A DNA stretch of 64,000 bases from Mobula hypostoma (taxonomy: Eukaryota): assembly GCF_963921235.1 (NCBI RefSeq), contig NC_086108.1:24862001-24926000 (forward strand), in the 5' to 3' direction. A program made the translations under genes and the position numbers. The notes beneath the pieces are model-generated. The model was not told the DNA's origin and did no database searches. It saw only the letters and a list, made by a program, of their open reading frames with translations. This document shows, piece after piece, positions 966 through 48,469 of this stretch (position 1 is the first letter of the stretch; each line of letters opens with the position of its first letter).

Positions 966-2088
966 CTATGCCTATGTACTCCATACTGACAAAAACGCCT
1001 TTCCAGACTAATCCCACTTGCCAGTATTTGGCCCATAACTTTCTCAATCTTTCCTATTAATGTATCTGAACAATTGTCTTTTAAGTCACAGCAGAAAATA
1101 ACACAAAGTTTTAAGAATAAAAGCACATTAACAAGTTAGAAGTATGATTGGAGAAATGATTATAATTGAATAGTGGCAAATCAAAAAAAGCCTTATAAGT
1201 GGCATCCCAACTTTGAATTCAAAGAGAATTAAATATGCAGTATTCAACCCTGAGATTTGCCTCCCCACAGACACACCATGGAACTCATTCAAAGAAAAAC
1301 AGCAAACACCCAATGCATAAAAAAATTGCACAAATGGATAAAAAAAAACAAGTGAAAACACAGAATACAAGACATCAAACTGTAAAGTCATTGATACAGT
1401 CTAGGAATCTTCAGTTCAGTTCAGAGGTGATCATGGAATAAGCAGATGCACTAATTAACATTCTCCAAAATTCTATGCTTTCTGGAATGTTCTTCATATT
1501 TAATAAGGGAACAAAAATAACCATACAAGTTAAGCAATGAGGCAGCAAGAGAACAGAGCTACAGATCAATTGGCCTGATCTTGTTAAAGAGAATCAATTG
1601 TTAAAGAAATGAGAACAGAAGATAATGGACATTCAGGATGGACACACGGTCATGTTGGCCCAAACAAGGACCTTTTGAGTCTGTGATAAACGAGAAAGTG
1701 GGAATAAGTGGATGTGATGTCAGAACATCCTTCAAGAGTGAACCCTCACCTGGTTTCAGGCCCCAACAGTGTTCCTGACCATATGCCAAGCAACTAGCTA
1801 CAATCTCTCTTCAATTACTGCACTCTGACACTCTCACTTACTCCCATAGGTGGCCTTAGCTATGTTTCACCCGTTTCAACTGAAACGGGCCCCACCCTCC
1901 CAAGGGCCCCCGACTGACATGCAAAAATTTAATGCACGGCTCCCAGACGCCACAATATTCTGCTGCTATTGCCAGCCGAACCACCAGTGGGCACTCGCTG
2001 ACTGACATCTGAGAAAATACATTAAAATATTTACTTCACTTGTAAATATTGCTCCTAGCAAAGAAGGTTACTTTTCAATGAGAGGAAA

Positions 2089-4684
2089 ATGAAACGCTCC
2101 TATCCTAGTGGTGCTGAAAAATGGAAAATATTAGACAACAAAACAAAATGTCTAAATAGTCTCCCAAAAGATACATCTTTCTTTGGTCCAGCACCTGTAA
2201 AAGGCCCGCCGACTGCAGCTGCTGCTGCACTATCTTCACAGCATGGGGCTGCAGTGCCAAGTGACAGTGTAAGCGGTACAGGAGATGTTGATAATCAGAG
2301 CAATGAAAATGAGAAGAACAATTCTACTCAAACAGATGGTGATAATGATGACCAAACTTTGTTTGATGAACAAGCACCACAGCATGATGACAGTCCTACA
2401 ACTGAGACGGGTGAGGGAGATGCCGCCACCAGCACACTAGGCAGAGAGAAAGCCCCACTAACATTCACAGAGACCAATCCGGCACGTTGGCCAACACATA
2501 TTACCAGTGACCAATGGATCGACATTGTTAGGAGGGGTCCTGTTCAGTTAGAGGACATTAATTTTCCACAGAGCCAATCACACCATCGTTTCACCAAGGA
2601 CAGATATCTTATGAAGATGAATAATGGAGAAACCATTTGTAGGTCATGGTTAGTGTACTCAGAATCATCTGATTCAATCTTCTGTTTCCGCTGTACCCTA
2701 TTTGGCAAGCGAAATCACAGTCTCACTTGTGGAGGTTTCAGAGTGTGGGAGCTACTCACTCTCACACTCCAGGATCATGAGAAGTCAAATGCGCACCGTG
2801 CCGACATGGATAGCTGGTGTGAGCTGGAAACGCACTTAAGAACGCACAGTGCCATTGACAGCACGTACCAAGAAATTCAAATGCTGGAAAAAAAAACACT
2901 GGAATGATGTCATGAAGAGGTTTATTGCCATAGTCTGTCACCTTGCAGAATGAAACCTTGCTTTCCGTGGCCACAATTCCACCCTACATGAAAGAAATAA
3001 TGGGGACTTTCTAGGTCTGGTGGAGCTGTTTGCCGAGTTCAACCCAGTGATAAGCGAACATGTCAGACAAGCAGAGAATAAAGAGTTTGCTGACCACTAC
3101 ATGGGGAAAACCATACAAAATGAGTTAATCACACTTATTGGAGACAAGACACTGGAAGCAATAACAGAGAGAGTAAAACAATCACGTTACTATTCGGTGA
3201 TAATGGACTGCACCACTGACGCTGCACACATAGAGCAGCTCTCTGCGACACTGCGCATTGTCACATGCCAAGTAAATGTCGGAGTTACTGTTAGTGAGCA
3301 TTTTGTTGGTTTCCTACCAGTGCTTGACACAACAGGTGCAGGCCTAACCGACATTTTCTTAATGCATATGGAGAAGTTAGAATTAGATATCTCAAAATTC
3401 AGGGGGCTGGCATATGATAATGGGAGCAATATGCGGGGGAAAAGTAGCGGGGTGTGGAAGAGGGTGTTAGAGATTAACAAAAAAGCACTGTTCATGCCAT
3501 GCGCCAGCCACAGCCTAAACCTAGTCATTGTCGATGCTGCAAAATCAACAGTGGAGTCTGAGAGCTTCTTTGGGTGCTGCAACGTCTACACGCACTATTC
3601 AGTTCATCGACACAGAGATGGGAGCTTTTCACTGGAGAACGTGCCACAGATGACCCTCAAGGCCATACCCAACAGGCGATGAGAGTGCCGCATGGAAGGT
3701 GTGAAAGTCCTGTGCTACCAGATTCCCGATGTTGGCAATGCACTCCTGTCACTAATTGAACATGCCACACAGAAAGGTGACAGTGAAACAACATCTGCAG
3801 CCAGAGGCCTAGAACAGGAGATCATGTCATGGAAATTCCTGCTGACTGTTATCATCTGGTACAATGTTTTACATGAGGTGAATCATGTCAGCAAACTGCT
3901 CCAGAGCCCACAAGTGGGAATCGATGTGCTACAGCGCGAGGTGGAATACGTTCTGAAATTTCTCAAGGAATACAGAGAGAATGGCCTTTCAACCGCCCAA
4001 ACAGATGCCAGAGACATAGCTGAAGAGATAAGGATGCCAGTAATCTTTCCTACTGCACGAATCAGAAAACCAAAACTCCAGTTCCAGTACGAGAACCAAA
4101 GTGCAGATCCTTCCCTGACAGTGGTACCCAAGGAATGGTACAAGAAAGAAGTTTTCCTTCCACTAGTGGACTCTGCCATCACAGGCATTAATGAGCGCTT
4201 CAAGCTGATGGAGTCATTTTACAGTCTGTTTGGCTTCATTTATGGAAGAGAGGAAATTAAAAAAGCCACCCAAAGTCGCACACTGAAAGACAGCTGCGTA
4301 AACATGGAGAGGACACTTGGTGATGTGGATGCTGAGGACCTTTAGCACGAGGTGTCGGCTGCTGTCAGTGCCTTGCCTGCAAAAGAAACCGCTGGCCTGC
4401 AGATTCTGAGCTACATTTACAGAAATAATCTGGTTGAACTGTATCCTAACCTCATTATTGCTCTAAGACTCATGCTGACAGAGTCTGTGATTGTAGCGAG
4501 TGGAGAGAGAAGTTTTTCAAGGCTAAAGCTCATCAAAACGCATCTGAGGACAACCATGCTCCAGGAGCGTCTGTCAGCTCTTGCTCAGATATCAATTGAG
4601 CATGAAATAACAAGGTTGCTGGACAAAGTTGAGCTCATTAAAGCATTCTCATCACTCAAGCACAGGAGGGTGGTGAAGTTCTAG
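2089..4684 (+). pseudogene. Disrupted hAT transposase (ZMYM1-like: TTF zinc finger, DUF4371, hAT C-terminal dimerisation)
   Basis: ORF pieces 2089-2907, 3020-3682, 3574-3759, 3692-4345 and 4352-4684 carry RSWLVYS..IFCFRC, YYSVIMDCTTD, YDNGSNM, CASHSLNL, and ASGERSFSRLKLIKTHLRTTMLQERLS. About three frameshifts (~2890, ~3572, ~3625) and three in-frame stops (~2951, 3680, 4343). Confidence 0.92.
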
Positions 4685-4870
4685 TGGTAAGTTTTTTAAC
4701 ACATTTTTGGCAGAAATAAAGTTTATAATTAAAATAATAAAATAAATCATGTATTTCACTCAAAATGTGTACAGGCGATTAGGCGGCGTTTCCACAAATC
4801 ATAATTTCTCTCTCCCCCTTGCATCCCCTCTCTCTCTCACTCTCCACCTGTTCACTCTCCAGGCCTTACC

Positions 4871-4891
4871 TGAGCTGTCCGTGGTGCTGAA
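4871..4891 (-). promoter_or_regulatory. RE1/NRSE (REST binding) motif
   Basis: Minus strand reads TTCAGCACCACGGACAGCTCA, an exact match to the RE1 core TTCAGCACCnnGGACAG with the canonical 2-nt spacer. Function not shown. Confidence 0.7.
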
Positions 4892-7349
4892 AGAGTGCGA
4901 GACACAGTTTGTTGTAAACTTCCAGTAGTTAACTTTCAGACACTGTCCATTGAATAAATAAAGTGTGAATTTTCATTAAATATGACATTGCTTTTGTTAT
5001 TAGTTTAATTAGAGGGAAATTGTTTAAGCTGTTCTTATGTCAGCTGATACCTAACACATAGTGCCATTCAATGCAGACTAGTTGCTGAAAAGGGAGAGGC
5101 TTCTCACTCCAAAGCAAAAAATGTCATTGTTTCAGTTTTTAACTAAGAGAATTGTTTGGATTATGTTGAGCTGTCTGTCCATTATGCTAAAAGTGCATAT
5201 AATGCATCAAAGTTTAAGTCCGAAATTATACCATTATTGACGCAAACCAACTTGAATATTTGCTTTTTTCTTTCTTTTTTTTGGGAAGCGGGAATAGGGC
5301 CACACATTAACCCTTGAAACGGGCCCCCAGATGCTTAAGGCTGCCTATGCTTACTCCAAAAGGGCATCAATCATACTGGTACCCAAGAAGGGTAAGGTAA
5401 GCTGACTTAAAGACTGTCACCCAGCAGCTTACCGTAATGCAGTACTTCACAAGTTTGGTTATCACTAGAGTTAACTCCTACCTGAGCAAGGACCTGGATC
5501 TGTGCAGTTCCCCTACCACCACAATTGGTCCACAGCAGATACAATCTCGCTGACACTCTACTCTACTTCGGAGCACAAAATATACCACTAAAAATACTGC
5601 TTGATCAATTACATGTCAGTTTTCAACATCATCATACCCTCAGTACTAGTCAACATGCTTTAAAACCTGAGCTTCTCTACCTCCCTCTGCAACTGTATCC
5701 TTGACTTCCTCACCGGGAGACCACAGTCTATGTGGATCTGTAATGACATCCCCTCCTTGCTGACATTCAACACAAGCATAGCCTATTTAGCTCTTTCTAC
5801 ACTCATGACTGTGTTACCAAGTGACGCTCCAATACCATCTGTAAATTCACCAATAAGACCACTAGTGTTGGCCACATCTCAGAAAGCAACGAGGTGATGT
5901 ACAGAAGACAGTCGAGTGGTGTTGCAACAACAATCAACAACAGCCAGATAGGTTATGGAATTTAGGAAGGGGAAGTTGAGAGAACAAATATCATTCATTA
6001 TTGAGGTATCAGCAAATTTGTGTTACTGGGCATCAGCATCTTGGAGGATCTTTTCTGAACCCGACATGCTGGTGCAATCTCAAAGACAAAATGACAGTAG
6101 ATCTAATGGCATGTTTCAGGAGATTTGGTCTGCACCAAAGACTATTTCAAATTTTGATAGATGTACTAAAGAGAGTATTTTGAATGGTTACATCACAGTC
6201 TAGTATGGAGCCTCCAATGCACAGGATCAGAAGAGATTGCAGAAGATTATAGACTTAGCCAAGACACAACCCTCCTTGAGATAAATGACATCTTCAAAGG
6301 ATGTTGCCTCACAAAGGCTCTCACCATCTGAGACATGCTTTTGTCATGTCACCATCATCAGCGGGAGAGGGTCAGAAGTCCAAGGACCCAAACTCAATGT
6401 TTCAAGAGCGGCTTCTTCTCCTCTACCATCAGATTTCTGAACAATCCATGAGCACAACCTTATTAAACTTTTATTTTTGTAATTTATAGTAATTTTATGT
6501 CTTGGTATGGTACTACTACCGCAAAGCAACAAATTTCACTTAATTGAAGTCAGTAATAATCAAATTTTGATTCTGATTCCCTACTTAAGGATTTACGTTT
6601 AATAGAGCGAGCATTGCAAATATGCACCAAATTGGTTATTAAGCTAGGAAAGATTGTCCTCTGTAAAGAGATTAAGCAAAAATAAACTTGGGCCTTTCAC
6701 AGACTGAGTGAATACAGGGATGATATTTCCTCTCATAGATTAGGTCTCGTTATAGGAAACAAGTCCTAATATTTCTCCCTCTCTTACAAAACAGTGAACA
6801 TGATATACTATCATTACAACTAAATTAACATAAAACCCAGTTAGTGAGTTTTCTAATTCTGATTCTTTACTCATTACCAAATGTTTCTTCATCATTTCTA
6901 CGTAGAACCTAACTCTAAAAATCTCACCAAAAAATTTTGAAAATCTTCATCTTTCCAAATATAGTCAGCTTATCACAACCTGAATGAAATTTAAAATCCT
7001 CAAGTCTAACTGTTCCATACTTTCTTCCTGCAGTCTTTTTGTAACCATGCTACCAAATACAATCCTGATAAGAGCCTTAAATCATTTTCTTTCTCAATTC
7101 AATCTGCAAGATATTCTCTGCTTTGTAGCCTCTCATATTCAAAATGATTTAGTTGTTAATCAGGAAGGAAACTCCTCTTCTTCTTTATCCCATCTTTTCC
7201 CTGATCTTTGAATCATAGTACATCTAGTTTCCAATTAGTAATGGTTAGCACGTCACACTCCTAAATTAACATGTGCTTGTAATTCATTCAATTTGTCCTC
7301 CTCAGTCTGTGTAAAGAGTGATTACCAGGGTCAAACTACTCTGTTCCTT

Positions 7350-7487
7350 CACAAACGACAGAAATTCTGCAGATGCTGGAAATCAAAGTAATACACACAA
7401 AATGCTGAAGGAATTCAGCAGGCCAGGCAGCATCTATGGAAAAGAGTAAATGGTCGATGTCTCGGGCTGAGAACCTTCATCAGGACT
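7350..7487 (-). mobile_element. Penelope-like element terminal fragment
   Basis: ttctgcagatgctggaaatc...gaattcagcaggccaggcagcatctatggaaaagag...cttcatcaggact, the same family as 15690-16165. Confidence 0.75.
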
Positions 7488-8359
7488 ATTTTGTTCTTTG
7501 ATATTTATACATATTTCTTCACTGCCACACCCAATTTAAGTTTGCTATTAACTGTAAAGCTTAAAATATATTTATACTATTGTTCTGTGCATCTATTGTC
7601 ATATGTTTTGCAGCATTTGATATTTTCTAACACTGCAAAGCCTATCATTTGAAGGGCTTGGCAGTAATAGAAAATATTAAATGCTTCAAACTTTGAAATT
7701 TTATTATTTATTGACATTTATTCATTTTGAAGCTCGCACAGGTGGATTTACCATTTCTGTATGAATGCTGGTTCTTGTCTCAATGGTACAATGACTCTTA
7801 TTCCAGGGGCAGCATTCCATGAAATGAAGCTCTGATTTCCCAAATTAGGCCTTCCACTAAATATTCCATAATCTTGAAACCTGTATACAAATATGCTTAC
7901 TGGGTGCCCTTACTTGCTCACTAGTACACACTAAACAGAGTCTGTTCCTTCTTCTTATATGCTGTGGATTCCAACATGGACCACATCAAGGATCCTCCCT
8001 TCCCTCACCAAATTCCTGATGAGATGTTCCTCATCAGGAATAATGTAACCCAGAAACTGATCTATATAAAGCACTGAAAATGACTGTTGTGCAGTCTTCC
8101 AATGACTGTCTTGTTGACCGCAACATAATTGAAAAGTACTAGAGACCCAGTCCATTAGTGGCTGCTGGAAGGCTTTATGCACTTACCTTTGCACATTGTG
8201 CCATTGCAAATTAAGTGAAGGTAAACAGCTGTGAGAACACGACTATGCCTTGTTAGAACCAGTAGTCAAGATTCCCAGGTTTGTACAAAGTCTGGAGTGT
8301 GAAGGATGTTTCAAGGCTTAAAGCATGATTTATTACCTCACCTCCAGTGCATCCACCAA

Positions 8360-8750
8360 GATGACCACAACCTTGTCATGGTTTCGAAGCTTGCAAGCTT
8401 CAATAACCTGGAAAACTATGTTGGGTGGAGTCAGAGCTCTATGTTTTGACCCGTGCCAAATAGGTCAAAGGATAGAGGCCTGACTAAGAGTGGTCCACCA
8501 GTCCTCCAGGTTCAGGCACTCAGCTCAGGACTAACAACCCTGACTGGCACAACAAAATTGTCATGGAAACAGCAATGAGGAAGCCTTTTACAGTCGAGTA
8601 CGACAGTATTCCTAAGCTCCAACTGGGTCTTGCGTGACTGACGGTCGTGAAAACTGAGAGGAAGCTACTGACATGAGGAAGGAAGTCCTGACCACCGCCC
8701 AAGATAGAGGACCTTCATTGCTGCCCTACAGGCCAGTGAAGTAATGGGCA
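8360..8750 (+). mobile_element. RTE-related non-autonomous element
   Basis: Motifs 'tggtccaccagtcctccaggtt...ctaacaaccctgac' and a 3' 'ttcattgctgccctaca' resemble the 5' and 3' ends of RTE-clade elements. Confidence 0.45.
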
Positions 8751-10369
8751 ATAAGGAAGTAGTGCATACTACAACTTGCAGCTGTTATTCTACAATGTTT
8801 ATTTTCAAGAGGACATACTTGGAGTAGAGTGATGATGAGTGTGATAAGTGATATTAATGAGAGTTTGGTATTGTTGGCCAATAGCATACATTTACAATGG
8901 CAGAAACAGTTTCTCTGTGCAAATATGGAAAAGAACATGCTGGCTTCCAGGGACATTCCCAGGTTGTTTACCTAACACTGAGTCCTGCTCAGGAAAGATC
9001 TGTTTAAATTATATTTCTGCTTTTTTGGACAGAGACAACAAAAATGCCATTATTCTTTGAGCACCTGTTGCAAAATGCTTTCATCCACGTAAATGGGATT
9101 CACAACCTTACTTGCTCATCAGAATTTCATAGTGTAGTAATTCAATCTGGAAACCATGGATTGAATTTCATTATATTGTAAATTAAGAGCAGCACCATGT
9201 GACTGGATTTCTAAGCCTAAATAATTTAAGATATTGTGGAGTTCATGATACTGCTTAAAAAATTCCATATGCATCACCAATTACTGAGTTTCCAGCAACT
9301 TTTCAGCATTACTTTTCAGCTCTTCTCAACCACCATCTAAAGCACACAAGAATTCTTGCTGTATTTCACACAGTCCTTATCCAGAACATCACAGGCAACA
9401 AGGAATCAGTTTCTAACTCTGCCCTTCCACATTTCATTTACTGTGTTTGGCAGCATGGTCACATCAATCCTTTCTGATTCTGCACTTCCAAAAGGTGACC
9501 TTAGACTGAGAACAACAGCCCAGTTAAATTCTTGCTCTGTATCAGGTCAACATTTCTCCAGTCCAACTCTGGCATTATTCATTCTCACACAGACCATTTC
9601 AGAGTAAAACCCTCAAGAACAAAAATGCAATTTTGGAGAGGCCCATTGTTCAAAAACTCCCATATAGTGCAATCTTAACATACAAGTTGCTCTACCAAAT
9701 CTACTATTTTTAGTCTTCTTCCAAGCATTTTCACATATTCCAGCTACTAAATTATTGGATGTAATATTAAGGTATGTACTACTGTAATGAGTTTAACTAC
9801 TAAAATACTGGATACTAATATTCAACACTTACTGCTTTAAGATCATACAAACCACTACAAGTATCAGAAGCAGACAACAATTCATCACTCTTAATACCAA
9901 TCAAATTCTCAACTACATGACCCGATTCTGCTGCTCTCTATTCACCATCATTGTCTATCAGCAGAAATTACTTTGTACTCTTGGTAAGTCAGTCAGAAGT
10001 AATATGATGACTCAACTCTCAGCTCACTGTAATTACTTCCTTTTAGATAGATGCTTGGACCTGATTTACTATTAACTGTCAAAGCAGACAGCTTCTGAAA
10101 ACTGTTGACTCCTGTGTAAGCCTTTTACTTTGTTTGATACATGGAGTGAAAATCTGGGAACTAAGTATCAGATATCTACTTTATACCAGAAATTTCAATT
10201 TTTACAGCAATGACTGCTCATGGTTTCAGTAGTCATCTGATCACACAAAAAGGGGAGGCGGTAGAGGAAGGTGAAAAGGGACAGAGAGGGAGGGAGAAGT
10301 GTATGATTGTTCTGCTCTGGACTTACTTCACTACATCAACTAATTGAGATAAATTGAGATCCACAGTCT

Positions 10370-12120
10370 GCTGAGAGCCAAATCCGAGGAATTCAAGTTT
10401 GGTGTCCAAATAGGTTACAAGAGGTCTAGGTACGATATTGGAAAGCGATTTCACGGGCAAAGTGGCAATTCTAATCTAAAATTGAATCAAGGAAGGATAC
10501 TCAACAGTTGTGGCAAAGCTGTCATCTCATAAAGAAAAAAACCAAGCGACATAGGTGGACTTCGCTTCCAGATGAGCTCAATGCTCTGTATGCTCGCTTT
10601 GACCATCAAAACAAGGAGGAACTATCACGAGCTCCCACAGCCCACAGTGATCTTGTGATTTTGGTCGGAGGCCGACATGCGAACAGCCTTGAGGAGGGTG
10701 AACCCACAAAAAGCATCTGGACCAGATGGGGTAGCTGGCCGAGTACTAAAGATCTGTACTGATCAAGTAGCTGGAGTGTTCACCGAGATCTTTAACCTCT
10801 CACTTCAGCAGTCTGAGGTATCCACCTGCTTCAATCGGACTTCACTCATACTGCTGCCAAAGAAGAATGTGGTAATCTGTCTCAATGACTATTGTCCAGT
10901 GACACATCTATCCACAGTGATGATGTGTTTTGACAGGTTGGTGATGAAACATATCAATTCCTGCCTGAGAAAAGACTTGGAATTTTCTCTAATTTCCCTA
11001 CTGGTGCAACAAGTCCATATCAGGTGCCCTCGTATTGGCTCTTCACTCAACCCTGGAACACCTGGACAGCAAAGGTGTTATACACCCGGATGCTCTTTAT
11101 CGATTACAACTTGGCATTCAATACCATCATCCCCTCAACACTAAACAATAAGCTTCAAGATCTTGACCTCAGTACCTCCTTGTGCAATTGGATCCTTGAT
11201 TTCCTCACTTGCAGAACCCAGTCAGTTTGTACTGGCAACAACATCTCCTGTACAATCTCCATCTGCACAGGGCATCACAAGGCAGTGTTTAGCAACCTGC
11301 TCTATTCACTTTATACTTACAACTGTGTGGCTAAGCACAGCTCCAATGCCACATTGAAGTTTGTTGATAAGACCACTGTTGTAGGCTAAATCAAAGGTGA
11401 CAACAAATCAACCTATATGCGAGAGATTGAAAATCTGGCTGAGGGTGCCATAACAACCTTATTCAATGTCAGCAAGACTAAGGAGCTGATTATTTACTTC
11501 AGGAGGAAGAAACCAGAGGTCTATGACCCAGTCCTCAGATGTTCAGAGATGGCAAGGGTCAACAATTTTAAACTCCTCTGTGTTACCATTTCAGACCCAA
11601 CCTGAATACAATTATGAAGAAAGCATGGCAGTGCCTCTACTTCCATAGGAGTTTGTAAAGAATTGGAATGACATCTAAAATTTTTGCAGATTACTCCAGA
11701 TCTGTAGTGGACAGTATATTGACTAGTTGCATCACAGCCTGATATGAAAACACCCGAACCCTTGAATGGAAGATCATACAAAAAGTAGTGAATACAGCCC
11801 AGTCCATCACAGACAAAATCTTCCCCATCATTGAGCATATCTACACAAGGTGTTGGAGCATCCACCATGAAGGCCCCACCACCCAGGCCATGCTCTCTTC
11901 TTGCTGCTGCCTTCAAGAAAAAGGTGCAGGAGCCACACGACCCGCACCGCCAGGTTCAGGAACAGTTATTACCCATTAACTATCAGGCTCTTGATATCTT
12001 CACTCAACTTCACTTGCCTCATGATTGAAATGTTTCCACAACCAATGGATTCACTTTCAAGAACTCATCATCTCATGTTATCGGTATTTATTGTTTATTT
12101 ATTTATTTATTATTATTATT
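10370..12120 (+). mobile_element. 5'-truncated Rex/Babar-like LINE (RT pseudogene)
   Basis: Frameshifted peptides [60 protein letters not shown] and RTARFRNSYYP; AT-rich tail. Confidence 0.88.
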
Positions 12121-20849: not shown

Positions 20850-20924
20850 CTGAATATTCTATCTGAAGGCTGTTCACCCATCACTAGATCAAAACCACGT
20901 TGGAACATGGTGTATGGCCAGGGG
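20850..20924 (-). CDS. ASTN1: Internal coding exon (75 bp, phase 2/2) of astrotactin-1
   Basis: Minus strand reads ttttttctttgcag|C CCC TGG CCA TAC ACC ATG TTC CAA CGT GGT TTT GAT CTA GTG ATG GGT GAA CAG CCT TCA GAT AGA ATA TTC AG|gtaagc. This gives [24 protein letters not shown](R), close to the remembered human ASTN1 segment [26 protein letters not shown] and less like ASTN2 (PWPYTTLERGYDLVTGEQAPEKILR). Canonical polypyrimidine-AG acceptor and GTAAG donor. Confidence 0.93.
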
Positions 20925-41254: not shown

Positions 41255-43035
41255 AGAAACATAGAAACATAGAAAATAGGTGCAGGAGTAGGCCATTCGG
41301 CCCTTCGAGCCTGCACCGCCATTTATTATGATCATGGCTGATCATCCAACTCAGAACCCCGCCCCAGCCTTCCCTCCATACCCCTTGACCCCTGTAGCCA
41401 CAAGGGCCATATCTAACTCCCTCTTAAACATAGCCAATGAACTGGCCTCAACAGTTTGCTGTGGCAGAGAATTCCACAGATTCACCACTCTCTGTGTGAA
41501 GAAGTTTTTCCTAATCTCGGTCCTAAAAGGCTTCCCCTCTATCCTCAAACTGTGACCCCTCGTTCTGGACTTCCCCAACATCGGGAACAATCTTCCTGCA
41601 TCTAGCCTGTCCAATCCCTTTAGGATCTTATACGTTTCAATCAGATCCCCCCTCAATCTTCTAAATTCCAACGAGTACAAGCCCAGTTCATCCAGTCTTT
41701 CTTCATATGAAAGTCCTACCATCCCAGGAATCAATCTGGTGAACCTTCTTTGTACTCCCTCTATGGCAAAGATGTCTTTCCTCAGATTAGGGGACCAAAA
41801 CTGCACACAATACTCCAGGTGTGGTCTCACCAAGGCCTTGTACAACTGCAGTAGTACCTCCCTGCTCCTGTACTCGAATCCTCTCGCTATAAATGCCAGC
41901 ATACCATTCGCCTTTTTCACCGCCTGCTGTACCTGCATGCCCACTTTCAATGACTGGTGTATAATGACACCCAGGTCTCCTTGCACCTAGCCTTTTCCTA
42001 ATCGGCCACCATTCAGATAATAATCTGTTTTCCTATTTTTGCCACCAAAGTGGATAACTTCACATTTATCCACATTAAATTGCATCTGCCATGAGTTTGC
42101 CCACTCACCCAACCTATCCAAGTTACCCTGCATCCTCTTAGCATCCTCCTCACTGCTAACACTGCCACCCAGCTTCGTGTCATCCGCAAACTTGGAGATG
42201 CTGCATTTAATTCCCTCATCCAAGTCATTAATATATATTGTAAACAACTGGGGTCCCAGCACTGAGCCTTGTGGTACCCCACTAGTCACCGCCTGCCATT
42301 CTGAAAAGGTCCCGTTTATTCCCACTCTTTGCTTCCTGTCTGCTAACCAATTCTTCACCCACACCAATACCTTACCCCCAATACCGTGTGCTTTAAGTTT
42401 GCACACTAATCTCCTGTGTGGGACCTTGTCAAGAGCCTTTTGAAAATCCAAATATACCACATCCACTGGTTCTCCCCTACCCACTCTACTAGTTACATCC
42501 TCAAAAAATTCTATGAGATTCGTCAGACATGATTTTCCTTTCACAAATCCATGCTGACTTTGTCCGATCATTTCACCGCTTTCCAAATGTGCTGTTATCA
42601 CATCCTTGATAACTGACTCCAGCAGTTTCCCCACCACCGACGTTAGGCTAACCGGTCTATAATTCCCCGGTTTCTCTCTCCCTCCTTTTTTAAAAAGTGG
42701 GGTTACATTAGCCACCCTCCAATCCTCAGGAACTAGTCCAGAATCTAACGAGTTTTGAAAAATTATCACTAATGCATCCACTATTTCTTGGGCTACTTCT
42801 TTAAGCACTCTAGGATGCAGACCATCTGGCCCTGGGAATTTATCTGCCTTCAATCCCTTCAATTTACCTAACACCACTTCCCTACTAACATGTATTTCAC
42901 TCAGTTCCTCCATCTCACTGGACCCTCTGTCCCTTACTATTTCTGGAAGATTATTTATGTCCTCCTTACTGAAGACAGAACCAAAGTAATTATTCAATTG
43001 GTCTGCCATGTCCTTGCTCCCCATAATCAATTCAT
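41255..43035 (-). mobile_element. Very young 5'-truncated CR1 LINE with an almost intact RT
   Basis: ORFs 41987-43048 and 41351-41986 are in the same frame, separated by one TAG. They contain NYRPVSLTSVVGK, VYLDFQKALDKV, GVPQGSVLGP and KFADDTKL. Tail (agaaacat)n at 41255. Confidence 0.96.
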
Positions 43036-43612
43036 CATGTTGGAACATTGTCTGTAGTTTTGTCTATCTTGCACTTAAACAGATATTGATGCATTCACAG
43101 GGTATTCTGAGAAATATTAATTAGCATAATTCAAATGCTTATTGAATTGTGAAGAGAGTTTGCATAACAATTTATATTTACAGAAAACATGGTCCAAACC
43201 TTTAAAATAATGCAGGCAGAGAGAATATAAAAGGAAATTGGTCATTTTTGTTGCAAATGTAGGCAAACTATTTTGCTTAGATGATAAGGAAAACAAGCAA
43301 ATAAATAATCAATATGTCCTCTCCCTCTGTAGCTAGCAATACTTACCATAAAGAATCAAAGCAAGCAACATTTCAAATCCAATGCTCATTTATTTGCTAT
43401 GGATGATAAAAGGAACAAAATTTATCAAGGTAAGTGTTGGTCTTTAAATATGCAGTGGACTGATATGTGCTGGCAAAGCAAATATTAATAGTCTAGAAAT
43501 TGAGTTAGAAAAGAATAATGTGCCTCCTTTTATATGTAAAAAAAGGATTGCATATGGGATGCAATTTGGAGCATTTGCACTGGTTAATTACAGAAGACCT
43601 GCTCATAAGAAA

Positions 43613-44550: not shown

Positions 44551-45760
44551 AACACAAAAGATTCTGCATATGTTGGAAATCTAGAGTAACACATGCAAAA
44601 TGCTGGAGGAACTCAGCAGGTCAGGCAGCATCTATGGAAAGAGATAAACTGTCGATGATTTGGGCCAGAACATTCATCAGGACTGGAAAGGAAGGAGGAA
44701 GAAGCCAGAATAAGAAGTTTGGTGGATGGGGTAAGAATACAAGATGAAAGGTGATTGGTGAAGTCAGGTGAGGAGGAGGGTAGGTGGGTAGAAGGAAAGA
44801 GATGAAGTGAGAAGCTGCAATGTGATAGGTGGAAAAGGTAAAGTACTGGAGAAGAAAGAATTTGATAGGAAACAATAGCCTGATGATCTTTGATTCTCTT
44901 CAAGGTGTTAAGTAAGACGAGGTGTTTGACAGTTGCTTCTTGAACTCTGCAAGGTAGCGGTCAGTCCAACAGCACCCCTGTTATCTTCAGGTTTAATGGT
45001 GAGACTGGAATTGGTGTGGAGCAAATCAAGAGCAATGTTTTTTAAGGTGGAAAAGTACAAACAGGAGAGAGGAGTGCCGAAGTTGAGACTGTTGATGTCT
45101 CATTGGCAATTAGAGAAGTAAAGATTCACAGCGGCAAAAAGCCAGAGTGGCATCTCAAAAAGGAGAAGGATTGGAGATTCAAGGAAGGGTCATCGGTGCA
45201 GGGTGGAGAACCATTGAAGAAGAAGTGGGCGTGGTGTTGTGGTGAGTGCAGAACTCAGAGGTGAGGGTGCAGAGGGACAAAGTAAGACCCTTGATGAGGA
45301 CAGAACATTCATCCACAGAGCGGGGAAGGTCAGAGTGGGTACAGGGCAGGAATAGAGATGGGGTCAGATAGGGGAAGAGAAGTTGGTGGAGTCAGAGGAG
45401 AGGGGAGGGTTGAGGTGTGCATAGAAGGTTGGGTCAGAGAAAGATGGACGCTCCAAGAAATCAAGAGGTGATGAGGGGTAGAGGGGAGCAAGACTGAGAG
45501 AGCCGGGGTTGGTGGGAGTAGTGGAGGAGGAAGGGGAGCCATGAGGCCCAGTGGCAGTGAGAAAGGTTTTGGCCTGAGGTGCTAATGGCACCTTCAGAGG
45601 TGGAGGCCATGTAATGCATGGTGTGAAGACGTCCGAGGCCATAGGAACCAGAGCTGTAGACATCAGGATCCATGGTGTGGAGAAGCCCGAGAAAGTTGGA
45701 AACAAAGTTAGAGATGCCAGGATTCGCAGTGTGGAAAAGTCCAGAATGGTTGGATCCAAA
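44551..45760 (-). mobile_element. Internally deleted Penelope-like element (terminal repeat plus ORF N-terminal relic)
   Basis: Terminal repeat at 44551-44880. The minus strand near 45270-45320 reads LSVDECSVLIKGLT (Penelope LS..E..VL.KGL.F motif), and near 45090-45130 reads NLYFSNCQ.DINSLNF. Confidence 0.65.
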
Positions 45761-47897
45761 GTTGGAGACGTCGGGATCTGTGGGTGCAGAGGCATCAGGA
45801 GTGAGCAGAATCGGAGTTGGAGGTGTCGGGATCTGTGGGTGCAGAGGCATCAGGAGTGAGCAGAATCGGAGTTGGAGGTGTCGGGATCTGTGGGTGCAGA
45901 GGCATCTGGAGTGAGTGAAATCGGAGTTGGAGATGTCAGGATCTGTGAGTGTAGAGGCATCTGGAGTGAGTGAAATTGGAGTTGGAGATGTCGGGATCTG
46001 TGGGTGTAGAGACATCTGGAGTGAGCAGAACCGGAGTTGGAGATGTCGAGATCTGTGGGTGTAGAGATCTGGAGTGAGTGGAATTGGAGTTGGAGATGTC
46101 GGGATCTGTGGTGTAGAGACCAGGAGTGAGTGAAATCAGAGTTGGAGATGTTGGGATCTGTGGTGTAGAGACCAGGAGTGAGTGAAATCAGAGTTGGAGA
46201 TATCGGGATCTGTGGGTGTAGAGGCATCTGGAGTGAGTGAAATCAGAGTTGGAGATGTTGGAATCTGTGGGTGTAGAGATCTGGAGTGAGTGGAATTGGA
46301 GTTGGAGATGTCGGGATCTGTGGTGTAGAGACCAGGAGTGAGTGAAATCAGAGTTGGAGATGTTGGGATCTGTGGTGTAGAGACCAGGAGTGGGTGAAAT
46401 CAGAGTTGGAGATATCGGGATCTGTGGGTGTAGAGGCATCTGGAGTGAGTGAAATCGGAGTTGGAGATGTCGGGATCTATGGGTGTAGAGATCTGGAGTG
46501 AGTGAAATCGGAGTTGGAGATGTTGGGATCTGTGGGCGTAGAGACCTGGAGTGAGCGGAATTGGAGTTGGAGATGTTGGGATCTGTGGGTGTTGGGACAT
46601 CTGGAGTGAGTGAAATGAGAGTTGGGGATGTCGGGATCTGTGGGTGTAGGGACATCTGGAGTGAGTGAAATGGGAGTTGGAGATGTTGGGATCTATGGGT
46701 GCAGAGACCTGGAGAGAGTGAAATCGGAGTTGGAGATGTTGGGATCTGTGGGTGTAGAGGCATCAGGAGTGAGTGGAATCGGAGTTGGAGATGTTGGGAT
46801 CTGTGGGTGTAGAGGCATCAGGAGTGAGTGGAATCGAAGTTGGAGATGTTGGGATCTGTGGGTGTAGAGGCATCTGGAGTGAGCGGAATCGGAGTTGGAG
46901 ATGTCGGGATCTGTGGGAGTAGAGACCTGGAGTGAGCAGAATCGGAGTTGGAGATATTGGGATCTGTGGGTGTAGAGACATCTGGAGTGAGTGAAATCGG
47001 AGTTGGGGATGTCGGGATCTGTGGGTGTTGGGACATCTGGAGTGAGTGAAATGGGAGTTGGAGATGTTGGGATCTATGGGTGCAGAGACCTGGAGAGAGT
47101 GAAATTGGAGTTGGAGATGTCGGGATCTGTGGGTGTAGAGGCATCAGGAGTGAGTGGAATCGGAGTTGGAGATGTCGGGATCTGTGGGTGTAGAGGCATC
47201 TGGAGTGAGCAGAATCGGAGTTGGAGATGTCGGAATCTGTGGGTGTAGGGACATCTGGAGTGAGCGGAATCAGAGTTGGAGATGTCGGGATCTGTGGGCG
47301 TAGGGACATCTGGAGTGAGCGGAATTGGAGTTGGAGATGTCGGGATCTGTGGGTGTAGAGGCATCAGGAGTGAGCGGAATCAGAGTTGGAGATGTTGGGA
47401 TCTGTGGGTGTAGAGGCATCAGGAGTTAGTGGAATCGGAGTTGGAGATGTCGGGATCTGTGGGTGTAGAGGCATCTGGAGTGAGCAGAATCGGAGTTAGA
47501 GATGTCGGAATCTGTGGGTGTAGGGACATCTGGAGTGAGCGGAATCAGAGTTGGAGATGTCGGGATCTGTGGGCGTAGGGACATCTGGAGTGAGCGGAAT
47601 TGGAGTTGGAGATGTCGGAATCTGTGGGCGTAGGGACATCTGGAGTGAGCGGAATTGGAGTTGGAGATGTCGGAATCTGTGGGTGTAGGGACATCTGGAG
47701 TGAGTGAAATCGGAGTTGGAGATGTCGGGATCTGTGGGTGCAGAGACCTGGAGAGAGTGAAATCAGAGTTGGAGATATCGGGATCTGTGGGTGCAGAGAC
47801 CTGGAGAGAGTGAAATCGGAGTTGAAGATGTCGGGATCTGTAAGCGTAGAGACATCTGGAGTGAGCAGAATCGGTGTTGGAGATGTCGGGATCTGTG
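45761..47897. repeat. Minisatellite, ~55-bp unit (52-55), about 39 copies
   Basis: Consensus ggagttggagatgtcgggatctgtgggtgtagaggcatctggagtgagtgaaatc repeated head to tail. Confidence 0.97.
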
Positions 47898-48469
47898 ATC
47901 TGGAGGAGTTCAGGTAAAAGTATATGCCAGATTTGAATGCTACCTACAAAGTAAAATTCATCACATTTACTTAAAGGAAAGATGTAACATATTCATGAGT
48001 TTCTTTTGGTGTCCTTCCTTTCAGCACTTAAGCAAAATGTAAGGCTCATTTAGGACACCATTTGTGGAGAAAATCAGACTAACTTATGTTTTCTCTGTTT
48101 GAAATTTCTGTAAATATTATTTACAACATGTAATATTAATTTTCTGTGAGACTGTCAACATTCTATATCTGAAAATTAACAGAGCTTCAAGTTCTTCCAC
48201 AGATTCTCAATTTGCTTGCTGTTTTCCTTACCCTCTAAGCAAAATAGCCTACCTATATATAGCACTGAAGATGGCCAGCTTTGATTTAAATTTAAAAAAA
48301 CAACAAATTTTATGACGTACGTCAGTGATAACAAACCTATTTCTGATGTTAACCCTGCCTGTGTAATTTTAAAGATTTGACTATATCTTCTGACAATGTA
48401 TTCTGTTATATAAGCCTCTCTTTCTCAACTTCATTGAATGTTGCTAAGCCTGTACTTGACAAAATTCAG

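Follow-up and report, generated by a model that had tools for sequence, protein, structure and literature searches.

A hAT DNA transposon of the ray Mobula hypostoma, of which one copy lies within the 64,000-nucleotide stretch analysed here (the window), carries a perfect canonical RE1, the binding motif of the repressor REST, in the noncoding DNA behind its transposase gene, and a distant fish-type relative of this element carries a split RE1 in its own 3' region. These observations, made in two families, suggest that REST sites recur in the 3' ends of a fish hAT clade. With short motifs it is hard to decide whether transposons bear sites for host factors by accident or to their own advantage; RE1 is long enough to be scored unambiguously, and the clade in question has many families in sequenced fishes.

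The ray element (Table 1) is a single full-length copy in the window with an 8-bp target-site duplication, whose sequence occurs just twice in the window, at either side of the element, and with short inverted repeats, a C-terminal dimerisation domain (Dimer_Tnp_hAT, PF05699, E 1.3e-7) and membership of a multi-copy family, all as in hAT transposons. With its second domain (DUF4371, PF14291, E 8.5e-8) it further agrees with DUF4371-type hAT elements, which combine the same duplication length, short inverted repeats and both domains. We take its group to be the TTF-finger/DUF4371 hATs annotated as "ZMYM1-like", a putatively Tip100-like group; the tree described below contains no named Tip100 element. 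The TGAAACGGG repeats near both ends are probably transposase-binding repeats. An intact, active transposase is not encoded by this copy: frameshifts at two places, near 2890 and 3575, and stop codons at three, near 2951, 3680 and 4343, disrupt the frame. Sequence searches returned no relative of the transposase with a solved structure, and Rfam gave no match over 1500-6000. Elsewhere in the window, a long G-rich tandem array of ~55-bp units occupies 45500-48000, with a GC skew of up to 0.63, and 41351-43063 on the minus strand holds a nearly intact reverse transcriptase piece with frames of 353 and 195 aa, presumably of CR1 type.

Table 1. Coordinates of the hAT element, its RE1-like sites and the neighbouring astrotactin exon within the window.
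Feature	Position	Strand	Remarks
hAT DNA transposon	1845..5349	+	full-length, decayed, 3505 bp, one copy in window
Left target-site duplication	1837..1844	+	CTTACTCC, 8 bp
Right target-site duplication	5350..5357	+	CTTACTCC, 8 bp, exact
Left terminal inverted repeat	1845..1858	+	12/14 bases match right repeat
Right terminal inverted repeat	5336..5349	-	
Subterminal palindrome of motif TGAAACGGG	1870..1893	.	motif again at 5315-5327
Transposase gene, broken	2089..4683	+	DUF4371 + hAT dimerisation domains
RE1 left half + one-mismatch right part	2100..2118	-	4-nt linker; within S-Y-P-S-G-A-E codons
CpG-rich family patch around RE1	4750..4904	.	13 CpG, 8 lost here; limits set after seeing data
Canonical RE1/NRSE	4871..4891	-	17-nt core exact; family feature
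Degenerate second RE1	5175..5191	-	canonical spacing
Astrotactin coding exon	20850..20924	-	75 nt, strong splice sites; Pfam ASTN_1_2_N

The RE1 at 4871-4891 is present just as the initial annotation had quoted it, in the hAT element downstream of the transposase, and follows exactly the architecture described for canonical sites (PMC11025195), with a 9-nt left half, a 2-nt linker and a right half starting with GGACAG. Its exact 17-mer, TTCAGCACCACGGACAG at 4875-4891, is the only match with three or fewer mismatches in the 64 kb, for which shuffled sequences predict 0.08, and an exact match over the 15 defined RE1 positions is expected 3e-5 times per 64 kb. The site lies in noncoding DNA, 188 bp past the transposase stop and 2.8 kb from the transposase start codon; the right end of the element is 458 bp away. 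Two tail positions of the 21-mer deviate from the RE1 consensus. As a separate observation, a change at 4870 that is specific to this copy creates a strong splice donor adjoining the RE1 (4864-4891, minus strand), in the orientation of ASTN transcription; a crude score places this donor among the best 4 of the 3303 GT sites of this strand. It is preceded by acceptor-like sites, 17 and 73 nt away, and a cryptic exon is possible; no splice joint was found at this donor among the joints listed. With the family letter at 4870, the plus strand of 4864-4872 contains TACGTG, presumably resembling a hypoxia-response or bZIP site.

That the motif was delivered by a DNA transposon, as initially claimed, and that most of the family shares it are both borne out by family sequences. 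Parts of the element were found in 20 of the 24 listed runs, from nine studies with eight organism labels, and for four of these runs, representing three organisms, the contigs were compared over 4400-5600. Each DNA-type run yielded 423-845 contigs over this interval, most of them less than 95% alike; these counts include matches to a flanking LINE piece and are not a copy number. Contigs run from the right end of the element into differing DNA, as in multi-copy dispersal. In all four runs the bin containing the RE1 was covered like the remaining element, for instance 964 in run X1 (range 284-1168), 2211 in X5 (1830-11992) and 32 in X14 (22-110). Of the 128 rows of differences, 40 were listed, 34 of them in the element, and most are read in nearly all contigs, which identifies them as changes of this copy; among these 40, differences occur at 4870 and 4896 and none in 4871-4895. 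Since coverage of the RE1 does not depart from that of the remaining element and no near-fixed difference is listed within it, the perfect RE1 is the family's majority version in all four runs. Judging from these contigs, the RE1 is a feature of the transposon family, which arrived with the element and is not one of the ASTN locus. Two single contigs stand apart: one from X14 skips 4659-4893 (235 bp, with the RE1) and represents a deleted family variant, and another, from organism B, runs over 5321-5600 into the same flank, a hint, given by only 29 letters within the element, that the insertion is common to organism B.

The element also contains the degenerate second copy at 5175-5191 that had been quoted, with 4 mismatches in 17 positions, or 3 over the 15 defined ones. 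At 5189 the letter is G in each of the four runs, so that the family version has two mismatches among the defined positions. Sites with two and three mismatches are expected 4.5e-4 and 0.007 times, respectively, within the 666-bp 3' region. This second site is followed by ACAG-CTCA and the first by CTCA, and perhaps the former is an old internal duplicate of the latter. A wide duplication around the two sites could not be detected, their alignment scoring 32 against a shuffle mean of 31.7. Another claim, of a left half-site at ~2108-2118 just after the start codon, held as to its presence, but this half is largely a by-product of coding: it spells the G-A-E codons of a conserved N-terminal SGAEK-type motif, present in some form in 47 of 126 fetched proteins, and has a chance of 0.04 given the peptide. 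The right part beside it has a chance of 6e-4 given the peptide and was noticed post hoc; the same N-terminal peptide region in the distant relative L005 holds no RE1-like site, and we regard the combined site at 2100-2118 as mostly a coding by-product, as far as codons and peptides indicate. A third right half at 4943-4948 was discarded, as the runs show another letter at 4947, and a left-half-like 9-mer with one mismatch occurs at 5081-5089 on the minus strand, that of the other two sites, without a right half nearby.

By its protein, the ray element stands amid transposases of fishes. After a fragment from Mobula hypostoma itself (86%), the nearest named proteins are those of Xyrauchen (77%), Merluccius (66%) and Sander (65%). 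A tree was built from 43 rows, which included 40 of the 126 fetched proteins; in it, the window protein groups with these teleost elements in a set of five rows (support 100/99), nested in a 29-row clade (100/98), and the named members of the 29-row clade are all fishes. The grouping with razorback sucker, pikeperch and hake transposases (P0001, P0002 and P0004) is seen despite the decay of the ray copy. Such closeness of ray and teleost transposases suggests horizontal transfer, which is probable between these two groups of fishes. A metagenome scan for relatives returned five loci, and scans of viral contigs, GTDB genomes and plasmids found none; an exact RE1 18-mer occurred at two loci of viral contigs with no hAT similarity beyond the motif, which were taken as chance. 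Among the five, L003 breaks off 411 bp and L004 215 bp past the stop, with no RE1 in that stretch, and L006 comes without its 3' end. L007, which is complete, more distant and outside the fish-named hits, has no RE1. The tally is thus one of one complete fish-type relatives, or one of five loci.

This one relative, L005, spans 1083-5500 as a complete element and is flanked by an exact 8-bp duplication, CTTCATGG. Its nearest proteins are those of Misgurnus, Neogobius and Amphiprion (74-83%), and it is separated from the window protein by ~1.1 substitutions per site across the root of the 29-row clade. Its split RE1, at 5180, is located 507 bp past the stop and 292 bp short of the right end; a left half and GGACAGC, both perfect, are separated there by a 10-nt linker. 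Read as two 10-nt halves, the site has a 9-nt middle and falls within the spacing of 0 or 3-9 nt described for non-canonical RE1s (PMC2687797). A first-order model predicts 6e-6 such sites (0 of 4000 simulations), while 0 and 3 of 20000 simulations produced one at second and third order. The most lenient estimate, in which TTTCAG is taken to account for the left half and local repeat density for the right one, is ~2e-4, and no such split site occurred in 85,773 other bases. The site overlaps a duplicated splice-acceptor-like TTTCAG: the segment 5100-5450 of L005 contains two intron-like stretches (GT...TTTCAG) with a duplicated acceptor, at the first of which the split RE1 begins. Purine-rich tandem repeats directly follow the stop in both L003 (4900-5123) and L005 (4680-5100), and in the latter the RE1 comes after them. 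Homology of the 3' regions of the window element and L005 was considered and rejected, as the flanks fail to align. Relative to the transposase, the two RE1s furthermore lie on opposite strands, and together with the unaligned flanks this means that the L005 site either was gained independently or is old and has been rearranged.

How might these sites have come about and persisted? In the reading that we tentatively favour, and which we hold to be possible though short of probable, an active founder of the ray hAT family would have had the RE1 in its 3' noncoding region and copied it along, the ASTN copy being one decaying passenger among many, and REST sites would recur at this position in the fish-borne clade because they are useful to the element. 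REST is reported to recruit deacetylases and demethylases (PMC2687797); sitting downstream of the transposase gene, it would bring in these co-repressors and so would dampen transposase expression in REST-positive cells, namely the non-neural soma, the early embryo and germ-line stem cells, thereby limiting damage to the host. Selection on the element, REST binding and repression are inferred here. In favour of such self-dampening, the second, canonically spaced site is nearer to the consensus in the family though the surroundings of the sites no longer align, a REST site recurs in L005, and mariner elements have self-silencers with an NRSF site (PMC4777549); against it, only one further complete fish-type element was available, its site is non-canonical and on the opposite strand, and the ray RE1 is 2.8 kb away from the start codon. 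Against function of any kind speak the bound shares of RE1s in human repeats, only 30.2% for canonical and 1.1% for non-canonical sites (PMC2687797), and the dispensable NRSF site of mariner (PMC4777549). The initial annotation had proposed that the element may use REST for its somatic silencing. The use of REST gains support from the split RE1 in so distant a relative, but "somatic" is too narrow: as Rest is reported to be high in mouse spermatogonial stem cells (PMC7857438), a general dampening is favoured over one restricted to the soma. With still more reserve, we consider that a hAT clade moving between teleosts and rays may have kept or re-evolved 3' REST sites as a portable switch for self-control in vertebrates. 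REST is presumably present in rays. Such a switch would imply that neurons, with their low REST, escape the repression, and that perfect RE1s are scattered through fish genomes. If it holds, a transposon uses a vertebrate-wide repressor as a brake that travels across horizontal transfers, and supplies fishes with new REST sites; if not, the ray element is one further transposon-borne RE1.

Rather unlikely, in our estimate, is the neutral alternative, in which the founder gained its RE1 by mutation or by capture of host DNA and multiplied it to no advantage, as LINE2 did, L005 being a coincidence. RE1s are plentiful in vertebrates (554 reported in fugu and ~1,900 in human; PMC1557810), transposon families are very many, and the window was picked out for its motif. 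The surroundings of the RE1 moreover look like captured regulatory DNA, as the family has 13 CpGs in the 171 positions of 4740-4910 and 10 in the other 779 (P=3e-5, with limits chosen post hoc). The 3' regions of the two elements are non-homologous, and this copy shows no excess conservation of the motif: with 34 differences in 950 bp, none within the 21-bp RE1 has P=0.47, or 0.20 at the local rate. This single copy bears no sign of selection on the motif, and one copy gives no power to detect it. What speaks against neutrality is that L005 was fetched by protein similarity and not by motif, with a chance of ~1e-5 to 2e-4 for its site, and that the same ray family has its second RE1-like site, at 4.5e-4.

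An effect opposite to self-dampening is also conceivable, although we judge it unlikely: in germ-line stem cells, REST might prevent methylation of the right end and keep it accessible for transposase binding. The sites of the window element and L005 lie 292-458 bp from the right end, and the ray family is CpG-rich around its RE1; REST binding has been reported to cause local hypomethylation, Rest being high in spermatogonia (PMC7857438, citing Stadler 2011), and newly accessible chromatin in killifish is described as marked by REST motifs (PMC11970524). However, 8 of 13 CpGs near the RE1 have been lost in this copy versus 4 of 10 elsewhere (P=0.41), which gives no sign of protection against methylation, and L005 has no CpG within ~100 bp of its split RE1.

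The neuronal gene itself appears to have little part in this. The initial annotation had placed the site in an intron of ASTN1, and an astrotactin exon was indeed found, corresponding to positions 423-446 of 555 of ASTN_1_2_N (E 2.9e-11); its peptide presumably belongs to ASTN1 rather than ASTN2. The element lies 15.5 kb beyond this exon, antisense to the gene and probably in the next intron, a status deduced from the finding of no downstream exon in the window. Two splice-site scans gave no further astrotactin exon in the window, including the further 43 kb upstream, and as the exon is a mid-gene one the promoter must be far. A special link of the RE1 to ASTN1 is not supported, as the copy decays like its flanks, 8 of the 13 CpGs nearby are gone and no 5' exon lies in the window; the position of the element in ASTN looks incidental. 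Exaptation by the host, with the RE1 of this copy repressing ASTN1 outside ray neurons under host selection, is thus very improbable: it could appeal to an intact RE1 in an astrotactin gene, to introns as the commonest reported RE1 location (29.4%; PMC1557810) and to the organism B contig with its 29 letters, but the motif has been retained as under neutral decay, the promoter is distant, and a very large gene would be an easy target for a multi-copy family.

In the literature searched, which leaves out most subscription papers and Repbase/Dfam notes, we found no hAT family for which an RE1 had been described; look-ups in papers on Xenopus REST targets and on zebrafish transposon-derived elements yielded none either. 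RE1 strings were likewise absent from the supplement files searched (PMC4746887, PMC9341512, PMC7070016 and PMC11753138), which may hold no hAT sequences at all. Transposon-borne RE1s as such are established, with LINE2, LINE1, Alu and hERV as reported carriers (PMC1557810), and for DNA transposons, taken as one class, an enrichment of human-specific REST peaks is described (PMC4499139).

Among these, LINE2 offers a parallel, as there too an element multiplies RE1s, and some LINE2 copies bind REST by EMSA and ChIP (Johnson et al. 2006, PMC1557810). The LINE2 RE1, however, is a site in the coding sequence of a retrotransposon and was read as growth of a host network (PMC1557810), whereas the ray hAT is a cut-and-paste element with a noncoding 3' site that is canonical in the family, and a REST site recurs in a distant family, which points to an interest of the element itself. 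Another parallel is given by the mariner elements, likewise DNA transposons with an NRSF/REST site in their 3' part, among self-silencers for which self-repression was proposed (Bire et al. 2016, PMC4777549). Their REST-like motif overlaps a conserved peptide, and in this it resembles the site at 2108 of the ray element; it is non-cardinal, located inside the ORF and reported to be dispensable for silencing, which proceeds via YY1, NFAT5 and PRC2 (PMC4777549). The RE1 of the ray hAT, in contrast, is perfect, canonical and placed outside the ORF.
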